Part shown: positions 1 to 9,363 of the stretch, in pieces
Position numbering within the stretch: position 1 is the first letter of the stretch
Layout: the number at the start of each line of letters is the position of its first letter
Origin: a virus
Lineage: Duplodnaviria; Heunggongvirae; Uroviricota; Caudoviricetes
DNA length: 9,363 nt
Direction: 5' to 3' (one strand)
Virus record (IMG/VR): IMGVR_UViG_2711768060_000012
Span: 1 to 9,363 of that record
Notes under the pieces: model-generated
What the model saw: the letters and a program-made list of their open reading frames with translations, nothing else
Told to the model about the DNA's origin: nothing
Database searches by the model: none
Position numbers and translations under genes: made by a program

Positions 1-1218
1 ATGAACAAACTGAGCGACACATTGTTAAGAAAACTTCATGGTAAGCCGGCGGAGAAAAATACGTTTTATAGTGATGGCGGAAATCTGAGCGTGAAATATT
101 TAACATCAGGGAAATTGACCTGGTATTTCACTTACAGGGCAGGAACGGGAAGAGGTACGCCACCGGAACGCCTGAAGCTGGGAAATTATCCTGATCTGAG
201 CCTGAAAGCAGCCAGGGAAAAAGCAGCACTGTGTCGCGCATGGCTGGCAGAGGGAAAAAATCCACGCCATGAGCTTAATTACTCCATACAGGAAGCACTA
301 AAGCCGGTAACGGTAGGCGATGCGATCAGCTACTGGCTGGAAATGCACGTAAAGGAAAACCGTGTCGATTACGTATGCCTGAAAAGCCGCCTTAATAATC
401 ACGTCATACAGCACATCGGCAATATGCCACTGGATAAATGCGAGTTACGTCACTGGCTGGCCTGTTTTGACCGGATACGCAAAAAATCACCCGTAACATC
501 TGGCCACATGATGCAGGCGTGCAAACAGGCGCTTAAGTTCTGCCGTAAACGTCGCTACGCAGTCAGTAACGTTCTGGATGATCTCAACGTGGTGGACGTT
601 GGCAAAAAGCCGGGCATAAGCGAACGCGTGCTTAGTAACAAAGAACTGGGCGAATTATTACAGGCGCTGGATAAAAAAATATTCCCGCCCTACTACAGCG
701 CACTAATCCGCCTCCTGATTGTGTTCGGCTGCCGGACCGGAGAACTGAGACTGTCGGAGATCAGGGAGTGGGATTTTAAGGAAATGCTCTGGACAGTACC
801 GAAGGAGCACAGCAAAACGAAGGTCGCCATATTCAGGCCAATACCGGAAAGCATTTTACCGTTCGTCACACAGCTGGTGGAGCAGAACCGACACACAGGG
901 CTATTACTCGGGGAACTGAAACAGGAAGCCAGCGTGTCGCAATACGGCAGATTCACGCACAAAAAATTAAACCATCCGCACTGGTCACTACACGATATAC
1001 GGCGCACGTTTACCACGATGCTGAACGATTTAGGCGTGGATCCGCATATTGTCGAGCAGCTTACCGCTCACCAGATGCCAGGGATGCAGCGAGTCTATAA
1101 CCACTCACGCTATATTGATGCGAAACGTAACGCGCTGGATATGTGGACAGAGCGATTAGAGATACTGGCGGGTGCTCACGAAAACGTAACCACACTGCCA
1201 ATAGCCAGAGAAATATAA
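1..1218 (+). CDS. int: Tyrosine site-specific integrase, P4-type
   Basis: 405-aa ORF. N-terminus (KLTWYFTYRAG...LKLGNYPDLSLKAAREKA) and C-terminus (HDIRRTFTTMLNDLGVDPHIVEQLTAHQ...VYNHSRY) match the P4/CP4-57 integrase pattern, including the HxxR and catalytic Tyr region. Confidence 0.9.
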   Translation: MNKLSDTLLRKLHGKPAEKNTFYSDGGNLSVKYLTSGKLTWYFTYRAGTGRGTPPERLKLGNYPDLSLKAAREKAALCRAWLAEGKNPRHELNYSIQEALKPVTVGDAISYWLEMHVKENRVDYVCLKSRLNNHVIQHIGNMPLDKCELRHWLACFDRIRKKSPVTSGHMMQACKQALKFCRKRRYAVSNVLDDLNVVDVGKKPGISERVLSNKELGELLQALDKKIFPPYYSALIRLLIVFGCRTGELRLSEIREWDFKEMLWTVPKEHSKTKVAIFRPIPESILPFVTQLVEQNRHTGLLLGELKQEASVSQYGRFTHKKLNHPHWSLHDIRRTFTTMLNDLGVDPHIVEQLTAHQMPGMQRVYNHSRYIDAKRNALDMWTERLEILAGAHENVTTLPIAREI

Positions 1219-1244
1219 TTTTTTTCGCGATTTTTCAGGACGTA

Positions 1245-1360
1245 CACAACGTGGAACAACGAGACACAACGACGAACAACGGCGAACAATCTGAAACAAA
1301 TCTGATTATCTATGATTATTTCTGATTAACTCCATATAAGTCTGATTTTCTGGTGATTTA
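1245..1360. repeat. Two 10-bp-phased direct repeat arrays: (A/C)ACAAC x6 (about 1246-1295) then TCTGATT-like x5 (1301-1359)
   Basis: ACAAC pentamers at 1246, 1256, 1266, 1276, 1286(ACAAT) and 1295; TCTGATT/TATGATT/GGTGATT at 1301, 1311, 1321, 1341 and 1353. Strict helical-turn spacing, immediately downstream of the int stop. Confidence 0.6.
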
Positions 1361-1594
1361 CTGTTTTTTTGTACATTGGCGAATCACTCTTAAAAATATG
1401 TAAAAAAGGTGTGAATGTAGAATTTTATGCCTTTGCATCACAATGAATTAAAAGAGTTTTTATTCTCATTACCCCACTTCTGTAAAATGACCGCCGCCAG
1501 TGTTTGCCATTCCATAAACACCCTGACACAATCCGACGCACCACAACACAATAGGACACCAAATAACTCTTTAAGAAATATCAAAGGGGGAATT

Positions 1595-1783
1595 GTGTTA
1601 AGCACAGATCGCTTTATACGTGAAAAAGAATGTCAGCAACTAACAGGCCTGAGCCGTTCATGTCGGTACCGCCTGGAAAAGGCCGGACAATTCCCATCAC
1701 GGCGTAAACTCGGCGGTCGTTCCGTTGGCTGGTCTTTATCCGAAGTTCTGGCATGGAAGGACAGCTGCGAGGCAGTTCACTAA
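1595..1783 (+). CDS. alpA: AlpA-family transcriptional regulator (phage/island activator, MerR-like HTH)
   Basis: The C-terminal 62 codons of track ORF 1427-1783 (VLSTDRFIREKECQQLTGLSRSCRYRLEKAGQFPSRRKLGGRSVGWSLSEVLAWKDS) resemble E. coli AlpA. GTG at 1595 is preceded by AAAGGGGG (1583-1590). The exact start is uncertain and could be an upstream in-frame ATG. Confidence 0.75.
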   Translation: MLSTDRFIREKECQQLTGLSRSCRYRLEKAGQFPSRRKLGGRSVGWSLSEVLAWKDSCEAVH

Positions 1784-1924
1784 TCAGACTGGCGGCATAC
1801 AGCCGCCCCCCATCCACTAACACAGAGATTTAACCATGAAGGCTGGATATACGCCCGAACAGGGGCGGGGGTTCGCTCGTCCTGGTGAAACTAAAAAGCC
1901 ATGTTATCGGGTATTTTCAGGCAT

Positions 1925-1952
1925 AAAAAAAGCGGCCCCGATAAGGAGCCGC
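1925..1952 (-). terminator. Intrinsic terminator, minus-strand oriented
   Basis: On the minus strand GCGGCUCC-UUAUC-GGGGCCGC forms an 8-bp stem (one G-U) followed by U7. The + strand version has a C/A mismatch and no U tract. Confidence 0.55.
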
Positions 1953-1996
1953 CTTTCTGAACAATTAACCTGCTGCACAAAAAATAAATATGAGCA
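1926..1996 (-). ncRNA. Candidate small RNA (~70 nt) between an extended -10 promoter and an intrinsic terminator
   Basis: Minus-strand TGaTATAAT (complement of + 2002-2010), then about 70 nt of U-rich sequence with a CUGCU/AGCAG hairpin, ending in the 1925-1952 terminator. No ORF with an RBS in the interval. Prediction only. Confidence 0.3.
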
Positions 1997-2001
1997 GTGG
2001 G

Positions 2002-2010
2002 ATTATATCA
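2002..2010 (-). promoter_or_regulatory. Extended -10 promoter element (TGnTATAAT) on the minus strand
   Basis: + strand ATTATATCA is the reverse complement of TGATATAAT. The -35 is weak (TTGTGG at non-optimal spacing). Confidence 0.35.
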
Positions 2011-2045
2011 GCCAGGTGACGAAGCGCCACAATTGCCGGATAACA

Positions 2046-2076
2046 GGCAAAACAAAGGCCACCCGCTACGGTGGCC
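2046..2076 (-). terminator. Intrinsic terminator for the leftward RHH-like gene
   Basis: Minus-strand GGCCACC-GUAGCG-GGUGGCC (7-bp stem) followed by UUUGUUUU, about 100 nt downstream of the stop at 2180. Confidence 0.55.
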
Positions 2077-2179
2077 CCTCGACACAAGCTACACGTTATC
2101 CACAACGCAAGAGAGCTGATTACTATGCCGTGATTACATCCGGTTGGCAATGTGATCAGTGTGCTGGCTTGCTGGTGGG

Positions 2180-2359
2180 CTATTCCTGCTCTTTGGCCTT
2201 GCGCCGCTGGCGGCGTTTGATCTCACCACGCATGGCTGTAACGATAAACTGCGCGTCTGTTTCGTTTTCCTCTTTGACCAAATTCATTTCGCTTAAAACT
2301 TCTAGAGGGATTCTAGCCGTTTTTTGTTGTGATTTGTTGTTGGTTGTACCCGTTGGCAT
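2180..2359 (-). CDS. Small basic DNA-binding protein, possibly ribbon-helix-helix fold (59 aa); candidate island regulator
   Basis: Internal ATG (complement of 2357-2359) of track ORF 2180-2536, preceded by a perfect SD AAGGAGG with 6-nt spacer. Product MPTGTTNNKSQQKTARIPLEVLSEMNLVKEENETDAQFIVTAMRGEIKRRQRRKAKEQE has a beta-strand/helix/helix layout and a basic tail. Candidate -10 TATACT at complement of 2391-2396. Confidence 0.55.
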   Translation of the reverse strand: MPTGTTNNKSQQKTARIPLEVLSEMNLVKEENETDAQFIVTAMRGEIKRRQRRKAKEQE

Positions 2360-2400
2360 TACTGGCCTCCTTACTGTTAGGTGGCGTTCAGTATACGTAG

Positions 2401-2471
2401 AAAAAAAAATAAAAAAAGGCTTGAAGTGCAAGTCACCTAAAAGTAGCATAACCTTTAAAGGTGACTTGCAC
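2401..2471. promoter_or_regulatory. A9TA7 tract plus 13-bp perfect inverted repeat (GTGCAAGTCACCT ... AGGTGACTTGCAC, arms 2426-2438 and 2459-2471); operator and/or minus-strand terminator
   Basis: Arms are exact reverse complements separated by 20 bp that contain the palindrome CCTTTAAAGG. On the minus strand the hairpin is followed by a long U tract. On the + strand it overlaps a candidate promoter (-35 TTGAAG 2421-2426, -10 TAGCAT 2444-2449) for the rightward operon. Confidence 0.5.
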
Positions 2472-2552
2472 CTTAAAGACAAAGCCCCGCAAGTGTCGTT
2501 ACCACTCGCAGGGCTTCTAACCACCAACGATAGCAAGATTATCGAGGCAGCT

Positions 2553-2756
2553 ATGAGAAATCATACCACACACCCGCAAGGGCGGGACTCGCACAACCTG
2601 AATAAATACATCTGGCGTTTTATCGCCCTGAGCACGGCACAACCGCGCGTGATTACCATTGAGGCCACCAGCGAACAGGAAGCACGCCAGCAATCCCCGG
2701 CTGGCTGCGTGATGGTATTCGCCGCCCGTATTCGTCAGGAGGTGCGCCATGATTAA
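2553..2756 (+). CDS. Small protein resembling Icd-like host cell division inhibitor family (67 aa)
   Basis: Last 67 codons of track ORF 1836-2756. ATG at 2553 is preceded by GAGG (2544-2547). KYIWRFIALSTAQPRVITIEATSEQEARQ...VFAARIRQ matches my recollection of Icd-like proteins in P4-like islands. The upstream part of the 306-aa ORF looks non-coding. Confidence 0.55.
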   Translation: MRNHTTHPQGRDSHNLNKYIWRFIALSTAQPRVITIEATSEQEARQQSPAGCVMVFAARIRQEVRHD

Positions 2757-2961
2757 TCTGTCACTTACCGACCTTAACCGCGTTCAGTTTCGTGAGAAAT
2801 TCACCGGGCAGCTACTGGTCAATGTGGAGAATGGACGCGTGGTGTGTAATTACCACCTGCCAGATGAATCAATTGTCGCAACAAGGGAATCATTACAGGA
2901 ACTCGCAGAACATGCCGGAATGATTAACGCGAATATTCAGGGGGTGCGCCATGTGCAATAA
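2749..2961 (+). CDS. Hypothetical protein (70 aa)
   Basis: ATG at 2749 is preceded by AGGAGG (2737-2742) and overlaps the upstream stop (translational coupling). No family recognised. Confidence 0.6.
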   Translation: MINLSLTDLNRVQFREKFTGQLLVNVENGRVVCNYHLPDESIVATRESLQELAEHAGMINANIQGVRHVQ

Positions 2962-3418
2962 CACCCATCCGGACGCAGCCGCCGAAGCTATCAAAACACT
3001 GATTGATGCGCTGATTGATATTTCTGTTATCGCGGACAGGGCGCATAAGCACGCCACCAGCGAAACAGAATATGCCGGGGCTTTCGTTCCTCACTCACTG
3101 GCTGTTATGCAGCTTAGCGCCGATATGGCGCTGAATGGGGCTAAAGCAATCCTGATTGCTGATTGTGAAAATGGGGGGGGGGTTATGCGTGATGATCGTT
3201 TTAATGCCCTGAAACAGGAATTTGATGGCGCACCGGAAGATACAGATATTGCGCTGTTATGTGTTGCTGACATGGTAAAAGCTGCATGTTTTTTACTGGA
3301 AACCGCCGAACATTCAGGAACGGGTAGCGATATTCTCAATATTGCGTCGGACTATGCGGAATATGTGGCAGAGGCACGTTACAGAAGAAAATTACCGGAG
3401 GATGTAAGCCATGGATAA
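2951..3418 (+). CDS. Hypothetical acidic protein (155 aa, about 26 D/E versus 12 K/R) containing an in-frame G10 tract
   Basis: ATG at 2951 overlaps the upstream stop. Coherent protein-like sequence on both sides of the G10 run at 3173-3182 (encodes ENGGGV). No family recognised. Confidence 0.65.
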   Translation: MCNNTHPDAAAEAIKTLIDALIDISVIADRAHKHATSETEYAGAFVPHSLAVMQLSADMALNGAKAILIADCENGGGVMRDDRFNALKQEFDGAPEDTDIALLCVADMVKAACFLLETAEHSGTGSDILNIASDYAEYVAEARYRRKLPEDVSHG

Positions 3419-3619
3419 AATCCCTTTCGATGTTCTTATTCATTCTGAGAATGCATTAATCAGGGCGCTTGAATTAAAAACGGTACTGGATGAATTAACC
3501 GAAAATAACACCGAGCGGGGGGGTATTTACTTTCTGCTTTCAGCACTCTGTTAACCCCGGTTATTGATGAATTAAACGCGGTTATGGAAATGCACGACAA
3601 GACCCGCGCAGAGGAATAA
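3411..3619 (+). pseudogene. Small gene (69 codons if corrected) interrupted by a frameshift at a G7 tract (3517-3523)
   Basis: ATG at 3411 with GGAGGA (3397-3402) opens MDKIPFDVLIHSENALIRALELKTVLDELTENNTERGG..., which stops at 3555. The -1/+2 frame opens right after a stop at 3506-3508 and continues YLLSAFSTLLTPVIDELNAVMEMHDKTRAEE to a stop at 3617-3619, just before the next gene. One extra G would fuse the two frames. Confidence 0.45.
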
Positions 3620-3624
3620 AAACC

Positions 3625-3924
3625 ATGAAAAAGAAAATTTCTGGCTTTACTGCCAGCGGCCCCGCTCGGCCTGAAATCCGCCCCGGCGATATTTTCCGGG
3701 ATAACTACGGCGGCACGGTAACGATTAAAAGCGTGGCGGGACGGTGCGTTACTTACCGCCGTGATGGGTACGGCTATGACTGCGTGATGCCTGTTTATCA
3801 GTTCCGGCGTGATTTTTCGCTGGTACAGGCCACACCACGCAGACAGCCCACCAGCAACGCAAAGGCACGGGCAAATATTCAGAAAATGAAAAACATGATT
3901 AACGCATTCAGGGGCACAAAATGA
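3625..3924 (+). CDS. Hypothetical small protein (99 aa), possibly a DUF4222-like prophage protein
   Basis: ATG at 3625 is preceded by GAGGAA. Stop overlaps the helicase start (ATGA at 3921). The IRPGDIFRDNYGGTVTIKSV...RDGYGYDCVMPV motif is tentatively recalled from small prophage proteins. Confidence 0.6.
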   Translation: MKKKISGFTASGPARPEIRPGDIFRDNYGGTVTIKSVAGRCVTYRRDGYGYDCVMPVYQFRRDFSLVQATPRRQPTSNAKARANIQKMKNMINAFRGTK

Positions 3925-5336
3925 AACTGGCACCGAACTTAAAAAAACAGCCACACGACAAAATGACCGAAGTCATTATTTTTGCGGGTAGTGATGCCTG
4001 GGCGCACGCGAAACAATGGCAGGAACAGGACGGGCGACTTGCTGGCGACAACGTGCCACCTGTATGGCTTGGAGACAGCCAGCTTGACGAACTGGCAGAC
4101 CTGAAAATCATCGATGATGGTCGCTATTGTGTCCGGCTGTACAAGGCAGGCCACATCAAGCCGTCAAATATTAATGCCATCGGGCAAAAGCTGGCGGCGG
4201 CAGGTGTACGGGATGCGAATTATTACCCTGAGGGAATGCACAGCCAGAAGCTGGAGAACTGGCACGACTACCTGCAACGGATCCGCGAACAGACAGAGCG
4301 CGGGGAAATACTTACTGACGAGCAATACAGCCAGCGAAAAACCACGCTACCAATGAGCATTGGATCTGCAGGGTACGACACACAGCTTGATTATGTCGTT
4401 AAGGGCGTGATTCCGGCTAATTCATTGTGCAGCACATACGGCGCGAGCGGTTCCTATAAATCGTTCCTCGCGTGTTCCTGGGCGTGTCATGTTGCCACGG
4501 GTCGCCACTGGGGAGGCCGCAGGGTGGCGCATGGTTCGGTGATGTATGTTGTCGGTGAAGGTGGCATTGGTGTCCCCCGCCGTATCAAAGCATGGGAAAT
4601 CGTTAATGATGAACGGGTGGAAAATCTGTACTTGGTAAACCGCCCGATTTTTCCGGCAGTTCCGCTTGATGTCGATGAAATGGTCATCGCTTCCCGCCAG
4701 GTTGAACGGGAAACGGGTAAACCGGTACGCATGATTATTCTGGATACGCTGGCGCGTTGCTTTGGCGGTAATGATGAAAATGACGCGCGGGATATGGGGG
4801 CGTTTATCCGTGGATGTGACGAACTGAAGCGACGCACAGGGGCCACGGTACTGGTGGTTCACCATTCCGGCAAGGATGAAACAAAGGGGGCGCGTGGTTC
4901 CAGTGCATTTCGTGCATCTCTGGACGCTGAATACCGTATTCGCCGGGAAGGTGCAGACAGTGAAGCCCTGGTTATCTCCTGTACCAAAATGAAGGACGCG
5001 GAGGAACTTAAAGAGGCTGCATACGATTTACGCGTGGTGGAGCTTTTTACCGACGCTGACAAGGAGTTAATCACGTCGCTGGTGGTTGTGGATAAGCCGC
5101 GCCCACCTGTTGAACTGGAACGCATCGAGGAAGCCGGGAACAAGACGGAGAATCATGCCGCGCTATGGGGCTGTATCCGTTCACGCACACAGCGCAGCGA
5201 TAAATGCACTATCCCGTTGTTGCGCGATGATATGAAAAAGCTGGGGTATGAGATGAAAAACTTCCGGCGCTGGCTGTACAAGCTGGAAAGAGACGGCGTT
5301 ATCGCTATTGACGGTGATGATGTGCGCCCACTGTAA
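3921..5336 (+). CDS. Replication protein: RepA-like / AAA_25 RecA-fold helicase with an N-terminal domain of unknown type
   Basis: 471-aa ORF. P-loop-like GASGSYKS (4440-4463), Walker B-like VRMIILDTLARCFGG, and LVVHHSGKD typical of RepA/DnaB-type helicases. Followed by an iteron array. Confidence 0.8.
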   Translation: MKLAPNLKKQPHDKMTEVIIFAGSDAWAHAKQWQEQDGRLAGDNVPPVWLGDSQLDELADLKIIDDGRYCVRLYKAGHIKPSNINAIGQKLAAAGVRDANYYPEGMHSQKLENWHDYLQRIREQTERGEILTDEQYSQRKTTLPMSIGSAGYDTQLDYVVKGVIPANSLCSTYGASGSYKSFLACSWACHVATGRHWGGRRVAHGSVMYVVGEGGIGVPRRIKAWEIVNDERVENLYLVNRPIFPAVPLDVDEMVIASRQVERETGKPVRMIILDTLARCFGGNDENDARDMGAFIRGCDELKRRTGATVLVVHHSGKDETKGARGSSAFRASLDAEYRIRREGADSEALVISCTKMKDAEELKEAAYDLRVVELFTDADKELITSLVVVDKPRPPVELERIEEAGNKTENHAALWGCIRSRTQRSDKCTIPLLRDDMKKLGYEMKNFRRWLYKLERDGVIAIDGDDVRPL

Positions 5337-5535
5337 AAAGTGAGGCGCAAAAGTGAGGGGATAGCAGGAACTGAACAAAAAGCAACCGCACCCCTCACTT
5401 TTCAACCTGTATATAGGCTCAAAAGTGAGGAATAAAAAACACATTGAAAAACAACATATTAGAATCACAAAAAAACAATGTTGGAAATCATGTGGGGAGC
5501 TTAAAAAGTGAGGTGAAAAAGTGGGGAATAGTGAG
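5336..5535. repeat. Iteron array, likely replication origin: AAAAGTGAGG repeated 5-6 times with an AT-rich core
   Basis: AAAAGTGAGG at 5336-5345, 5349-5358, 5421-5430 and 5504-5513; degenerate copy 5517-5526; inverted copy CCTCACTTTT at 5393-5402. AT-rich stretch 5431-5490. Directly downstream of the helicase gene. Confidence 0.6.
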
Positions 5536-5537
5536 AA

Positions 5538-5789
5538 ATGACCAGAAAAACCAGAGATAAGACAGCGCCAAAATATCGCGCATTAGACATGACAGAGCAC
5601 GCCTTAAAGGTGGCAATCAGAACGATAGACCGCCATGCCGGAGAAGGATACGCGAAAGCACATCCCGAACTGATAAGCGCATTCATGACCACAGCGGCGG
5701 CAAACTTTGCCACGCTGACAGAGCGGGAGATTGCGGAAGCGGAACAGGTGACAACCATCAACGTTAAAACCGGAGAGCAGACAGCATGA
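5538..5789 (+). CDS. Hypothetical protein (83 aa)
   Basis: ORF with a weak RBS. Stop overlaps the SSB start (ATGA at 5786), suggesting coupling. No family recognised. Confidence 0.5.
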   Translation: MTRKTRDKTAPKYRALDMTEHALKVAIRTIDRHAGEGYAKAHPELISAFMTTAAANFATLTEREIAEAEQVTTINVKTGEQTA

Positions 5790-6208
5790 CAGCACAGATA
5801 GCGGCTTACGGTCGGCTGGTGGCTGACCCTCAGTTAAAGACCACCAGCAAAGGGACACAAATGGCGATGGCGAGTATGGCGGTTCCCCTGCCGTGCAGCC
5901 AGGCAGATGACGGAACGGCGACGATGTGGTTATCCGTCCTGGCGTTTGGCAGACAGGCCGACGCACTGGCAAAACACCACAAAGGCGAACTGGTGAGCGT
6001 GGCGGGTAACATGCAGGTAAGCCAGTGGACAGGCCAGAACGGCGAAGCGCGGCAGGGCTGGCAGGTTATCGCAGACAGCGTAATCAGTGCGCGAACGGTG
6101 CGACCGGGCGGCAAAAAAGGCCAGCAGGGCCAGGCTACTGACGCACTGAACAGGGCAAAACAACAGGCGGGAAATGATGATCCGTACGGGGATAACATAC
6201 CGTTTTAA
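5786..6208 (+). CDS. ssb: Single-stranded DNA-binding protein (SSB, OB-fold)
   Basis: 140 aa. N-terminal OB-fold-like region, Gly/Gln-rich linker (GGKKGQQGQ) and acidic C-terminal tip ...DDPYGDNIPF, resembling the SSB DDDIPF tail. Confidence 0.8.
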   Translation: MTAQIAAYGRLVADPQLKTTSKGTQMAMASMAVPLPCSQADDGTATMWLSVLAFGRQADALAKHHKGELVSVAGNMQVSQWTGQNGEARQGWQVIADSVISARTVRPGGKKGQQGQATDALNRAKQQAGNDDPYGDNIPF

Positions 6209-6224
6209 GCAACGAGTGACAGAA

Positions 6225-6248
6225 GCCGGGGTTTTTCCCGGTTTTTTT
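6225..6248 (+). terminator. Intrinsic terminator after ssb
   Basis: CCGGG-GTTTTT-CCCGG hairpin (6226-6241) followed by T7 (6242-6248). Confidence 0.6.
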
Positions 6249-6295
6249 ATGGGTCCTTCCTGAAAAATGGAACACCGGGGGGATGCGGACGCGCA
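6242..6295 (+). repeat. 54-bp direct repeat, copy 1 (TTTTTTTATGGGTCCTTCCTGAAAAATGGAACACCGGGGGGATGCGGACGCGCA)
   Basis: Identical to 8713-8766. Starts at the T tract of the ssb terminator. Confidence 0.9.
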
Positions 6296-6476
6296 GAAAA
6301 CGGCTGGTTTTTGCATTTTCATGGTGGCGGCAGCATGTGTGATAATTAATTGATAATTAAAAATTATTTCTGTTTTCACCTGTACAATCTTTTTTCTCCC
6401 CCTGTCATCAGACCAGTTTGCAATTAATTGAAATATATAAACAAATTTGTTTTTCACCTGCCAAATGGAGCTGCCT

Positions 6477-6572
6477 ATGTCAAATGTGATTGGGATTGGT
6501 GATGCTTATCACTGGCACACAAAAATGAATATTGCATATTTTGCAATGCAATTGATCATCATTGCATTTTGA
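6477..6572 (+). CDS. Candidate 31-codon small ORF / leader peptide (MSNVIGIGDAYHWHTKMNIAYFAMQLIIIAF)
   Basis: ATG at 6477 is preceded by GGAG (6467-6470). Hydrophobic C-terminus. Overlaps the dyad-rich control region and could equally be non-coding. Confidence 0.2.
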   Translation: MSNVIGIGDAYHWHTKMNIAYFAMQLIIIAF

Positions 6573-6616
6573 TCAACACTGCACACTTCAAATATCAGTC
6601 TGAAACGAGGTGTTAC

Positions 6617-6820
6617 GTGAACGAAAAGAAAGCTGTATCGGTTTATCTCGACAATGAAACGGCGCTTGCCCTGTACCGTTTGCGCGAAGATATTCGCAAG
6701 AAAAATGCAGAAACGGGAATGGATCTTCCCACGCCAACAGTCGGCTGGCTTGCCCGTTCATTGTTGCGTCAAAGCCTGGGAATTAAGGCAGACAAAAAAG
6801 ATTTGCCTCATGAGGGGTAA
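6617..6820 (+). CDS. Small ribbon-helix-helix-like protein (67 aa) upstream of the capsid gene
   Basis: GTG at 6617 is preceded by GAGG (6607-6610) inside track ORF 6569-6820. KAVSVYLDNETALALYRLREDIRKK fits the RHH pattern of a beta-strand followed by a helix. Confidence 0.5.
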   Translation: MNEKKAVSVYLDNETALALYRLREDIRKKNAETGMDLPTPTVGWLARSLLRQSLGIKADKKDLPHEG

Positions 6821-6825
6821 GGTTG

Positions 6826-8667
6826 ATGGAAATTTCATTGTATGAGCCAATCGAAGGCGTAACCGCAAGACAGTTCCGCGATTCACTTATGGCTGCAAAA
6901 GGCCCGGTTACGGTTGCCATAAACAGCGGTGGCGGAAATGTAACTGACGGCATGGCGATGTTTAACGCCCTGAGAACGTACAAAGGCCACACGGTCGCAA
7001 GAATCGACGGTATCGCCGCATCAATGGCTACCATTGTTGCGCTCGGTGCCCGGCGTGTCGTGATGGCTGATAACGGCTGGTGGATGATCCATAACCCGTG
7101 GGGCGTTTTTGTTGGTGAATCGGAAGATCTCCGCAAAAAAGCCGACATGATGGAAAAAATCGGCAAGGCAATGCTTGATACCTACGTTGCCAAAACCGGA
7201 TTACCGGAATCAGAAATCAAAGCCATGATGGATGCTGAAACATGGCTGACGGCTGAGGAAGCGAAAGAAAAAGGATTTATTGATGAAATTTATCCGGCAG
7301 AGGGACAGGCATTAGCCATGGCCCCTGGTTGCGGATCACTGGTAGAGAAATTTACCAGAACGCCGGAAAGCATCATCGCATCGATGAAGAAAGGCGACAC
7401 GGGATCAGCAAACGAAAGAGAGAAGCGAAAAAAAGAAGCCGACGTTTTGTTTGCTTACTGGAAGAATTCTTCGTATGAGTGGTTGCCAGGAATTGTTGAA
7501 GAATTTATCAGCGGTTCCATCACTGCCGAAGAAGCACGTAAAAAACACTTAGAAAAACTGGCGGAAGAGACAACGCCGTGCGCAGGACCAGGAGCAATGA
7601 ACATGTATGCAGGTAACGGTAATATTGTTGGGGATTCAGTAAAAGCGGCGCTTATGGCACGCAGTGGACTGGCAGATGTGGAAAAAGATAACCGCTATAA
7701 CGGTTATTCATTGCGGGAACTGGCGCGCGCTTCTCTGGTGGATCGTGGGGTAAGCGGCATTCCCGGTAATCCGCTGGGCATGGTCGGAATGGCGTTTACT
7801 CACAGCAGTAGTGATTTTGGCGGCGTTCTTGCGGATGTGGCGCATAAATCATTACTGAAAGGCTGGGAAGATTCACCGGAGACGTTCCACGCCTGGACGA
7901 AAAAAGGCACTCTGACAGATTTTAAGGTTGCCCATCGTGTTGGTATGGATGGTTTTAAATCTTTGCGAAAAGTTTTACCAGGCAGTGAATACAAATACGC
8001 GTCCACGTCCGATCGCAGCGAGCCAATTGCACTGGCAACTTATGGCGAACTGTTCAGCATAGATCGCCAGGCAATCATCAATGACGATATGAGTGCGCTA
8101 ACTTCAATCCCCCAGCAAATGGGGGCAGCAGCAAGCCGCACAGTCGGAGATCTGGTTTATGCCGTTCTCGTGGCTAATCAGAGGATGGGCGATAAAAACC
8201 CGCTCTTTGATGCGAAACACAGCAATCTGATTAACAGCGAACTTGATATTCCAGGCCTGAGCGCAGCCCGTAAAGCTATGCGTATGCAAAAAAATAATGC
8301 TGGTGCTGTACTGAATATTCCGCCTCGTTTCCTGTTAGTTCCGGTAGAACTGGAAGACAGAGCAACCCAGCTTATTCGTTCTACGTCGCTACCAGACGCG
8401 CAGAACAGCGGTGTGTTTAATCCATACAATGATGCTCTGACAGTAATCACAGAAGCGCGGCTGGATGCCGACAGCGTGAAATCCTGGTATCTGCTTGCTG
8501 GTCAGGGAAGTGATACAATCGAAGTCGCTTATCTCGATGGTATTGATACCCCGTACCTGGAACAGCAGCAGGGCTTTACGGTTGATGGCGTTACTTTCAA
8601 AGTGCGCATTGATGCCGGAGTTTCTCCCCTGGACTGGCGCGGGATGGTTAAGTCATCAGGTGGCTAA
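6826..8667 (+). CDS. Prohead protease (ClpP/S14-like) fused to major capsid protein (HK97-fold)
   Basis: N-terminus AINSGGGNVTDGMAMFNALRTYKGHTVARIDGIAASMATIVALGARRVVMADNGWWMIHNPWG has ClpP-like Ser/His motifs. The long C-terminal domain resembles HK97-family capsid proteins. ATG at 6826; the track start at 6823 is TTG. Confidence 0.8.
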   Translation: MEISLYEPIEGVTARQFRDSLMAAKGPVTVAINSGGGNVTDGMAMFNALRTYKGHTVARIDGIAASMATIVALGARRVVMADNGWWMIHNPWGVFVGESEDLRKKADMMEKIGKAMLDTYVAKTGLPESEIKAMMDAETWLTAEEAKEKGFIDEIYPAEGQALAMAPGCGSLVEKFTRTPESIIASMKKGDTGSANEREKRKKEADVLFAYWKNSSYEWLPGIVEEFISGSITAEEARKKHLEKLAEETTPCAGPGAMNMYAGNGNIVGDSVKAALMARSGLADVEKDNRYNGYSLRELARASLVDRGVSGIPGNPLGMVGMAFTHSSSDFGGVLADVAHKSLLKGWEDSPETFHAWTKKGTLTDFKVAHRVGMDGFKSLRKVLPGSEYKYASTSDRSEPIALATYGELFSIDRQAIINDDMSALTSIPQQMGAAASRTVGDLVYAVLVANQRMGDKNPLFDAKHSNLINSELDIPGLSAARKAMRMQKNNAGAVLNIPPRFLLVPVELEDRATQLIRSTSLPDAQNSGVFNPYNDALTVITEARLDADSVKSWYLLAGQGSDTIEVAYLDGIDTPYLEQQQGFTVDGVTFKVRIDAGVSPLDWRGMVKSSGG

Positions 8668-8688
8668 TACACAATCAGGCATGTTATG

Positions 8689-8720
8689 TTTTTTTTGCGG
8701 CCTTCGGGCCGCTTTTTTTA
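8689..8720. terminator. Bidirectional intrinsic terminator after the capsid gene
   Basis: T8 - GCGGCC-TTCG-GGCCGC - T7: perfect 6-bp GC stem with a tetraloop, flanked by T tracts on both sides. Confidence 0.65.
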
Positions 8721-8766
8721 TGGGTCCTTCCTGAAAAATGGAACACCGGGGGGATGCGGACGCGCA
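8713..8766 (+). repeat. 54-bp direct repeat, copy 2
   Basis: Perfect match to 6242-6295. Starts at the T tract of the capsid terminator. Confidence 0.9.
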
Positions 8767-8880
8767 TAAATCGAGAGATTTTTGATATTTTATGCGTGCA
8801 GCAGCATAAGTTTAATGCTTTGATTTTTAACATTATTGATTTGTTTTGTTGAAAAAGCGACCGTGCAGTGAGGTGGTAAA

Positions 8881-9363
8881 GTGGAACTGAGCAAAATGCA
8901 GGTTAATGTCTCACAATTGGCAGACCTGGTAGGCATGAATCGAAATCTTGTTTCACGCCGTTTGCGTGAGCTGGAGCTTGTTGGCGGGAATGGTGAGAAT
9001 CTTAAATTGTATGAACTCGGTCCGGCACTTCAGGCACTACTGACCCCATCAATGAAAGAAAATGGTGAAATGTCACCACAGGATCGGAAAGCCTGGTATC
9101 AGTCAGAAAATGAAAGGCTGAAATTTGAAGCAGCTTCACGTGAATTACTCCCTGTCGAAGAGGTGGCCCGTGAATATTCATCTCTGGCTAAAGCCGTGGT
9201 CATGGTGCTGGAAACGTTACCGGATATTCTTGAGCGCGATTGCGCTCTCCAGCCTTCTGCAGTCATGCGAGTACAACGCATTATTGATGATCTACGTGAT
9301 GAAATGGCGAGAAAGATAGCAGAAAGCGATTCAGATAATGGCTGGCCTGCATGTGCAAGATGA
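8881..9363 (+). CDS. Terminase small subunit, lambda Nu1-like
   Basis: MQVNVSQLADLVGMNRNLVSRRLRELEL...NLKLYELGPALQAL parallels the Nu1 N-terminal wHTH (VNKKQLADIFGASIRTIQNWQEQGMP...NEVLYDSAAVIKWY). Start is either GTG 8881 (GAGGTGG upstream) or ATG 8896. Stop coincides with the window end. Confidence 0.75.
   Translation: MELSKMQVNVSQLADLVGMNRNLVSRRLRELELVGGNGENLKLYELGPALQALLTPSMKENGEMSPQDRKAWYQSENERLKFEAASRELLPVEEVAREYSSLAKAVVMVLETLPDILERDCALQPSAVMRVQRIIDDLRDEMARKIAESDSDNGWPACAR

Follow-up and report, generated by a model that had tools for sequence, protein, structure and literature searches.

The small-gene block at positions 2749–3924 of the window (the whole 9,363-nt stretch analyzed here, i.e., positions 1 to 9,363 of IMG/VR virus record IMGVR_UViG_2711768060_000012) was probably the middle of a conserved early operon in a Gram-negative phage-inducible chromosomal island (PICI) of the EcCICFT073 type. 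A sequence-only reading had described this block as an accessory slot of small, uncharacterized, translationally coupled genes between alpA and the replication module. Its four open reading frames (ORFs) were all present, at 2749–2961 (70 amino acids, aa), 2951–3418 (155 aa), 3411–3554 (47 aa, frameshifted), and 3625–3924 (99 aa), and the satellite context and the position of the block were supported by domain matches. The gene chain, however, started one gene earlier, with an overlooked Icd-like gene at 2553–2756, and the 155-aa ORF turned out to be two genes fused at a G10 tract. Profile searches agreed that the small genes had no enzymatic motifs. No function could be assigned to N, C, o69, and o70, four of the block's six families, which stayed uncharacterized, whereas the 99-aa gene was identified by sequence comparison as an orthologue of the regulator RgdR. 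The predicted operon order was Icd-like, (o70), N, C, o69, RgdR/DUF4222, and replicase, with the following features:

2553..2756, plus strand: Icd-like gene, 67 aa, first of the coupled chain (NF033153, E 1.4e-19; phrog_6196, E 3e-46)
2749..2961, plus strand: o70, 70 aa, optional cassette gene (phrog_340, E 1e-22)
2951..3184, plus strand: N half of the 155-aa ORF; in most relatives, a gene by itself, ~79–86 aa (phrog_5146)
3173..3182, plus strand: poly-G tract 1 (G10), N/C junction; tract length sets the fused or split state of the pair
3185..3418, plus strand: C half of the 155-aa ORF; in most relatives, a gene by itself, 77 aa, starting at its own ATG (3185 in the window) (phrog_24341)
3411..3619, plus strand: o69-family gene, frameshifted in the window (phrog_2196 when repaired)
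3517..3523, plus strand: poly-G tract 2 (G7), o69 frameshift site
3625..3924, plus strand: RgdR-family DUF4222 protein, 99 aa, net charge +14, isoelectric point (pI) 10.6 (PF13973)
3921–5336, plus strand: RepA-family helicase/replicase, last gene of the coupled chain (PF13481 AAA_25, E 3.5e-44; phrog_2850)

Gene content and order of the small-gene block

Two samples of related loci were compared: (i) 81 IMG/VR loci found via the junction sequence, a route biased towards the presence of N and C, and (ii) 80 loci found via RepA, 64 of which had enough upstream DNA to be counted. Among the latter 64, the Icd and DUF4222 genes were each present in all 64, N in 59, C in 51, and o70 in 14, while the junction-sampled loci yielded 76 slots, 67 of which held a member of the o69 family (68–81 aa). 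The gene order was constant: Icd, (o70), N, C, o69 (or an o70-family gene), DUF4222, and replicase. The block measured 659–1814 nt (interquartile range 1148–1389) in 97 distinct elements, and therefore no cargo had ever been inserted; wide variation in gene content and length, the mark of a cargo hotspot, was not seen, the same families recurring in the same order. The alpA–icd interval (488–1998 nt in the same sample) was not obviously a cargo site either. This comparison of slot variability, proposed as a check along with the accessory-slot claim, thus returned a conserved module instead of a variable slot: the small-gene block was a module with mosaic alleles, kept across satellites that differed in integrase, replicase, and packaging genes, and its alleles were reshuffled at conserved junction sequences.

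Pairwise ratios of nonsynonymous to synonymous substitution rates (dN/dS) were 0.23–0.37 for icd, o70 (0.33), N, C, and DUF4222, compared to 0.10 for RepA, and the small genes were therefore real protein-coding genes under weaker constraint than RepA; o69 yielded no usable pairs in this analysis. Paralogy among N, C, o69, and o70 was not detected (hhalign probabilities all <1%). A tblastn search of 50,697 phage records returned nothing for the 155-aa, 99-aa, and 70-aa proteins, and icd was found in only one 16.5-kb induced element.

Nearly every junction in the operon was a stop/start overlap, with the Shine–Dalgarno sequence lying inside the end of the preceding gene. From 5′ to 3′, the overlaps were ATGATTAA (8 nt, the stop of the Icd-like gene with the start of the 70-aa gene), ATGTGCAATAA (11 nt), and ATGGATAA (8 nt), followed by a 5-nt gap before 3625 and an ATGA overlap into repA at 3921. 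The overlapping stop/start codons noted earlier were thereby borne out, and the same geometry was annotated in Escherichia coli PI7, ETEC1732, and O157 Sakai, even where the genes were non-homologous. No plus-strand terminator was predicted inside the block, and the only promoter-like site predicted in the block scan was weak and lay within repA (4084–4111). Translation would enter at icd and then pass down the chain to the replicase, and control of the icd ribosome-binding site would therefore gate the whole block.

Fusion of N and C at poly-G tract 1

The 155-aa ORF had a net charge of −14 (in line with the earlier estimate) and a pI of 4.58, and it was composed of two adjacent genes, N (~79 aa) and C (77 aa), fused in frame at poly-G tract 1. 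PHROGs held a full-length family (phrog_2512) plus a separate family for each half (phrog_5146 and phrog_24341). In an alignment of the window with two complete genomes, the G run was the sole difference at the junction:

Window: junction G10 TT; fused, 155 aa
ETEC1732: junction G8 T; fused, 154 aa
PI7: junction G8 TT; split, 79 + 77 aa, ATGCGTGA overlap

Tract 1 across 84 loci was G7 in 23, G8 in 37, G9 in 18, G10 in 4, and G11 in 2, and all three frames were therefore common; no tract-1 length removed the N or C product, because the C half always kept its own ATG. The fused 154/155-aa forms made up many independent protein clusters, finished RefSeq chromosomes carried tract 1 lengths of 7, 8, and 9, and the tract length differed within four pairs of elements that had at most two mismatches in the 900-nt flank. 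An interrupted tract 1, GGGGAGGGGGGG, was observed in locus L120.

Tract 1 sat in the most conserved ~60–70 nt of the block (within 3140–3230), where synonymous sites were almost invariant among 54 distinct loci, and the N and C interiors diverged to 41–47% protein identity in a mosaic pattern. An RNA structure or frameshift signal at this junction was considered and rejected, the fold being no better than that of shuffles (z +0.67). The conserved ~70 nt would be an allele-recombination junction that also supplies the Shine–Dalgarno sequence for C.

The AlphaFold model of the 155-aa protein (predicted local distance difference test score 80.6, predicted template modeling score 0.49) contained long helices 9–37 and 39–73 in N, a Gly linker, and helices 81–90, 98–116, and 119–147 in C. 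Foldseek searches of PDB and BFVD with this model gave no match below E 0.4 (best 0.45 in PDB and 2.8 in BFVD), with no mimic among the targets. The protein had no Pfam match, its PDB sequence search gave chance-level matches only (E ≥ 0.37), and those with the 99-aa and 70-aa proteins gave none. An exhaustive HMMER search against 1.84 billion representatives recovered 48 clusters (at 50% identity), each of which was N-like, C-like, or a fusion of the two. The DNA-mimic role proposed for the acidic protein therefore found no support: it was strongly negative as expected of a mimic, but no sequence homologue existed outside the family, no Foldseek match fell below E 0.4, and neither sequence nor fold resembled a known mimic. 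N and C would instead act jointly, as an acidic, helical pair that binds proteins and can be made as one chain or two.

The o69-family gene and o70

The o69-family gene of the window encoded 47 aa (3411–3554), with the remainder in another frame up to the stop at 3617–3619, and one G added to the 3517–3523 run gave an intact 69-aa product. In relatives with this allele type, tract 2 was 5, 6, 7, 8, or 9 long; most G8 copies and the G5 copy were intact (69/68 aa), and whether a given length was in frame also hinged on the base preceding the run. Truncated o69 occurred in the window and in several other elements, complete genomes included. Sakai ECs1580 was a member of the same family at 32% identity.

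The o70 gene was optional, and a member of its family could instead sit between C and DUF4222. In the window, it was flanked by two 17-nt direct repeats, each including the Shine–Dalgarno sequence and the start:

2735..2751: left repeat, TCAGGAGGTGCGCCATG
2937..2953: right repeat, TCAGGGGGTGCGCCATG

The PI7 element (L001) had no o70, and its missing DNA was exactly the stretch between the two repeats.

The 99-aa gene and the replicase

The 99-aa protein matched PF13973 at 86.1 bits (gathering cut-off 27, E 1.2e-24) and was 67% identical to ECs1581 of O157 Sakai over 99/99 aa (E 4.6e-46). ECs1581 is the published regulator RgdR (99 aa, pI ~10), which activates LEE1 and type III secretion, represses motility, and binds DNA non-specifically; a change at residue 20 of its RGD motif alters its activity on LEE (the locus of enterocyte effacement) and on motility, and the CFT073 orthologue C1493 is active. 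The RGD at residues 20–22 was replaced by P-G-D in the window (IRPGDIF), residue 20 being Pro (RPGD) compared to ECs1581, while other alleles had RGD, CGD, or NGD. The DUF4222 model was Tudor-like and resembled the RNA-polymerase-binding C-terminal domains of UvrD/PcrA and the CarD domains, and RgdR would accordingly be pictured as a small, basic, Tudor-like DNA-binding co-factor of transcription or replication.

The region annotated in Sakai as "prophage Sp7; untypable" (L159:19711-35171) had the gene content of a capsid-forming PICI (cf-PICI EcCIEDL933). Its early block consisted of Icd-like ECs1577, two unrelated small genes, ECs1580, ECs1581, and a primase; ECs1581 immediately preceded the primase gene and overlapped it by ATGA, and pchE adjoined the gene for the single-stranded DNA-binding protein (SSB). 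A literature search with the Sakai locus tags brought up no studies of the neighboring small genes. Residues 1–134 of RepA (3921–4325) were 61–66% identical in relatives with otherwise different replicases, e.g., the 710-aa primase ECs1582, and these conserved N-terminal ~134 aa always adjoined DUF4222.

The Icd-like gene and its upstream region

The Icd-like gene scored 69.9 bits against NCBIfam NF033153 (cut-off 25), and its relatives were annotated as "host cell division inhibitor Icd-like." Four features were recognized around its start:

2475..2553, minus strand: candidate cis-antisense RNA, ~79 nt, complementary to the Shine–Dalgarno sequence, start codon, and leader of icd (fold, covariation, and strand asymmetry)
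2560..2568, minus strand: extended −10-like motif TGGTATGAT preceding the antisense candidate, within icd codons 3–6 (from sequence only)
2401..2476, plus strand: A-tract and two GGTG-N-CAC(C) (N5–7) palindromic sites around the putative icd promoter (inverted repeat)
2421–2426 (−35, TTGAAG) and 2444–2449 (−10, TAGCAT): putative weak sigma-70-like icd promoter, between the divergent ylcI and icd

The minus strand at 2475–2553 was a candidate cis-antisense regulator with a predicted promoter and terminator. It was made up of a stem-loop (SL1) complementary to the icd Shine–Dalgarno sequence and start codon, followed by a GC-rich stem-loop (SL2) and a U tract. Opposite the icd leader, the minus strand folded at −67.8 kcal/mol (z −8.4), compared to −46.4 for the plus strand, and it was the more stable strand in 37/37 variants, with a mean difference of 13.6 kcal/mol. 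Across 20 diverse loci, 23 consensus pairs were found, six of them compensatory, with 98.5% of cells paired, and 0/500 shuffles attained the observed values in four of five measures. Several invariant G-U pairs of the candidate corresponded to A-C on the opposite strand, and Sakai Sp7 showed this arrangement as well. The extended −10-like motif was kept as TGnTATGAT/TATAAT across differing icd N-terminal types. The candidate was absent from Rfam.

Neither C4 (RF01695) nor isrK (RF01394) had an Rfam match at E ≤ 1 in the window. Six sister loci (L020, L026, L033, L049, L116, and L136) carried isrK plus C4 in sense orientation directly upstream of icd, e.g., L136:2801-2989, and in L136 icd was also followed by another C4 and an a1b1 target site. 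The isrK/C4 pair and the candidate antisense RNA appear to occupy this position as alternative regulatory modules, and gating at icd would be exerted by isrK/C4 RNA in the sister elements and by the candidate cis-antisense RNA in the element of the window.

The GGTG-N-CAC(C) sites were inverted in the window and direct in other loci, with lineage-specific central bases. The hairpin at 2421–2476 was rejected as a minus-strand terminator or RNA element; this stretch more plausibly held two operator sites next to an A-tract, because its arms were direct repeats in other loci. Possible ligands of these operators may be YlcI/YnfO or AlpA.

Combining the antisense candidate with the two poly-G tracts, a further-reaching joint reading can be put forward tentatively, as one more likely to fail than to hold: an undescribed ~80-nt cis-antisense RNA would gate the Icd-led operon, functionally replacing isrK/C4, and at the same time the poly-G tracts would make N/C (split/fused) and o69 (on/off) phase-variable.

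Overall layout of the element

The window was a Gram-negative PICI. Its main genes were all on the plus strand, the exception being the YlcI/YnfO gene, and the features outside the small-gene block were as follows:

1–1218, plus strand: tyrosine integrase gene int
1595–1783, plus strand: alpA, co-oriented with int (PF05930, E 3e-18)
2180–2359, minus strand: YlcI/YnfO gene
5334–5526: AAAAGTGAGG iterons in direct and inverted orientation, in an AT-rich stretch 3′ of repA
3′ of the iterons, plus strand: 83-aa gene, SSB gene, and ClpP-protease/major-capsid fusion gene
8881–9363, plus strand: DUF1441/TerS-like gene (terminase small-subunit PHROGs; phrog_141, E 1.4e-54)

The properties expected of a PICI were found, namely int at one end followed by AlpA, an own replicase with downstream iterons, and small size with no genes for tail or lysis. 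The last of these was judged on the relative L001 (~10 kb between abgR and smrA, carrying only the capsid/protease fusion and the TerS-like gene), as the right end of the window was cut off. The iteron region at 5334–5526 was a probable origin of replication. The layout agreed with the published zones of Gram-negative PICIs (Integration, Bro, Replication, and Late) and fitted the operon of EcCICFT073, which is AlpA-activated according to the literature. Window-related DNA was present in 2193/5426 complete E. coli genomes (~40%) and the small-gene slot itself in 1679/5426; no complete E. coli genome covered at least 80% of the window.

A GC-rich hairpin followed by a U tract, terminator-like, was observed at 8665–8720 between the capsid fusion gene and the DUF1441 gene. 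A 306-aa ORF at 1836–2756, running from just after alpA into icd and across the antisense of ylcI, was considered as a P4 Eta-like protein and judged spurious, because its conserved residues fell on a minus-strand terminator (2054–2079) and on the ylcI antisense; its upstream 239 aa had no Pfam or PHROG match. The Sakai annotation holds an ORF, ECs1576, similar to this frame.

Role of the small proteins and alternative explanations

It is favored here that N, C, o69, and o70 belong to the satellite's own early program, entered via icd and coupled to the replicase; these orphan proteins would help the satellite itself to be induced, to take over the host, or to replicate, and would not be cargo. 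Their main alternative role is helper manipulation. The sequence-only reading had suggested anti-defence or helper-manipulation factors, and possibly a DNA mimic, in a variable accessory position, and this now appears unlikely. Such a position would suit satellite-specific orphan proteins, the −14 charge of the acidic protein, the mosaic divergence of the N/C alleles, the optional and movable o70, and a constraint weaker than that on RepA, but the gene set and order were kept in nearly all relatives, the block was never found with cargo, and one member was the regulator RgdR. Anti-defence functions drew no match from PADLOC (0 families for all nine proteins). As for a mimic, no structural similarity to solved or viral proteins, known mimics included, was found, and the modeled helical hairpin plus three-helix unit would not correspond to an elongated, charge-patterned mimic. 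Homology to ordinary regulatory or replication proteins, which in all members would have spoken against accessory functions, was found for two genes only.

It is quite improbable that the block is a replication-accessory module whose small proteins, DUF4222 above all, are loaders, origin-binding factors, or replicase partners. DUF4222 was always directly upstream of, and overlapping, the replicase, whether RepA helicase or primase; it was conserved alongside the ~134 N-terminal aa of differing replicases; its protein is basic and, as published for RgdR, binds DNA; and a related Tudor fold is located at the C-terminus of UvrD/PcrA helicases. RgdR alone, however, alters the expression of LEE1 and of motility genes in cells, an effect that suggests a role in transcription; profile and PDB sequence searches showed no resemblance to known loaders; and the literature consulted names only int, alpA, and pri as required for PICI induction and transfer (the small genes were not tested there). 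A decaying remnant, in which frameshift and fusion mark a degenerating, non-functional block or the poly-G differences are assembly errors, is very improbable: o69 was truncated in the window and in complete genomes, and homopolymers are error-prone on several sequencing platforms, but dN/dS was well below 1 in all families tested, C kept its own start in every frame so that neither product was abolished by any tract-1 length, fused forms recurred in many independent clusters, and length variants occurred in finished RefSeq chromosomes.

Several points nevertheless weigh against a conserved, icd-gated early operon with hypermutable poly-G tracts. Translational coupling was deduced from overlap geometry, and the antisense RNA was a prediction for which covariation was silent on SL1, because SL1 was invariant, the covariation support lying in SL2. 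Part of the poly-G length differences may be sequencing errors, and the junction-sequence sample carried the bias given above. N, C, o69, and o70 had no homologues outside a narrow family and no fold match, and the strong allelic diversity of N and C would also suit proteins that track variable helper-phage partners.

Comparison with known systems

The 99-aa gene was compared to RgdR of E. coli O157:H7 (OI-51/CP-933C/Sakai Sp7, i.e., cf-PICI EcCIEDL933) and to C1493 of CFT073, with which it shared the length of 99 aa, a basic character, and the DUF4222 domain. Like ECs1581, it was located directly 5′ of a replicase gene with an ATGA overlap and was preceded by o69-family and Icd-like genes. 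EcCICFT073 and EcCIEDL933 displayed the same int–alpA–early genes–replicase–ori–SSB–capsid/packaging layout with an AlpA-activated operon and were likewise very common in E. coli; unlike them, the window had a RepA helicase together with both a TerS-like gene and a protease/capsid fusion.

The immI operon of P1/P7 (c4 RNA–icd–ant) is likewise headed by an Icd-like ORF in front of translationally coupled genes. In P1 immI, C4 blocks icd translation and hence expression of the coupled downstream gene, an established mechanism (Citron and Schuster 1992; Heinrich et al. 1994). The isrK/C4 upstream of icd in the sister satellites reproduced this arrangement, whereas the window had no C4 or isrK, its downstream genes were not ant, and its candidate regulator would be encoded in cis on the opposite strand.

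The left operon of satellite P4 (eta/kil–CI RNA–epsilon–orf151–alpha primase) resembled the window in having an AlpA/Vis-type regulator followed by small early genes and ending in a replicase gene; the P4 early genes are under RNA-based immunity, and those of the window may be as well. Unlike in P4, the small proteins of the window had no similarity to any phage record, and no Bro/Eta-type gene was present in the window. As in homopolymeric phase-variable loci, the G7–G11 coding tracts differed in length between near-identical elements and shifted the frame; unlike in those loci, tract 1 toggled split/fused and not on/off, the variation here being known from between-element comparison.

Implications for satellite biology

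No part in the life cycle of the satellite had ever been attributed to the genes between alpA and the replicase, although ~40% of complete E. coli genomes contain related sequence; being conserved as a module, the block calls for life-cycle genetics and not for defence screening. RgdR, so far described only as a regulator of virulence in enterohemorrhagic E. coli, would belong to the core early genes of PICIs and be coupled to the replicase, and the mosaic alleles joined at conserved junctions show how satellites reshuffle their early genes. The candidate antisense RNA and poly-G switching are two testable regulatory features, and if the joint reading of the two were true, a clonal host population would carry satellites in differing early-gene states.

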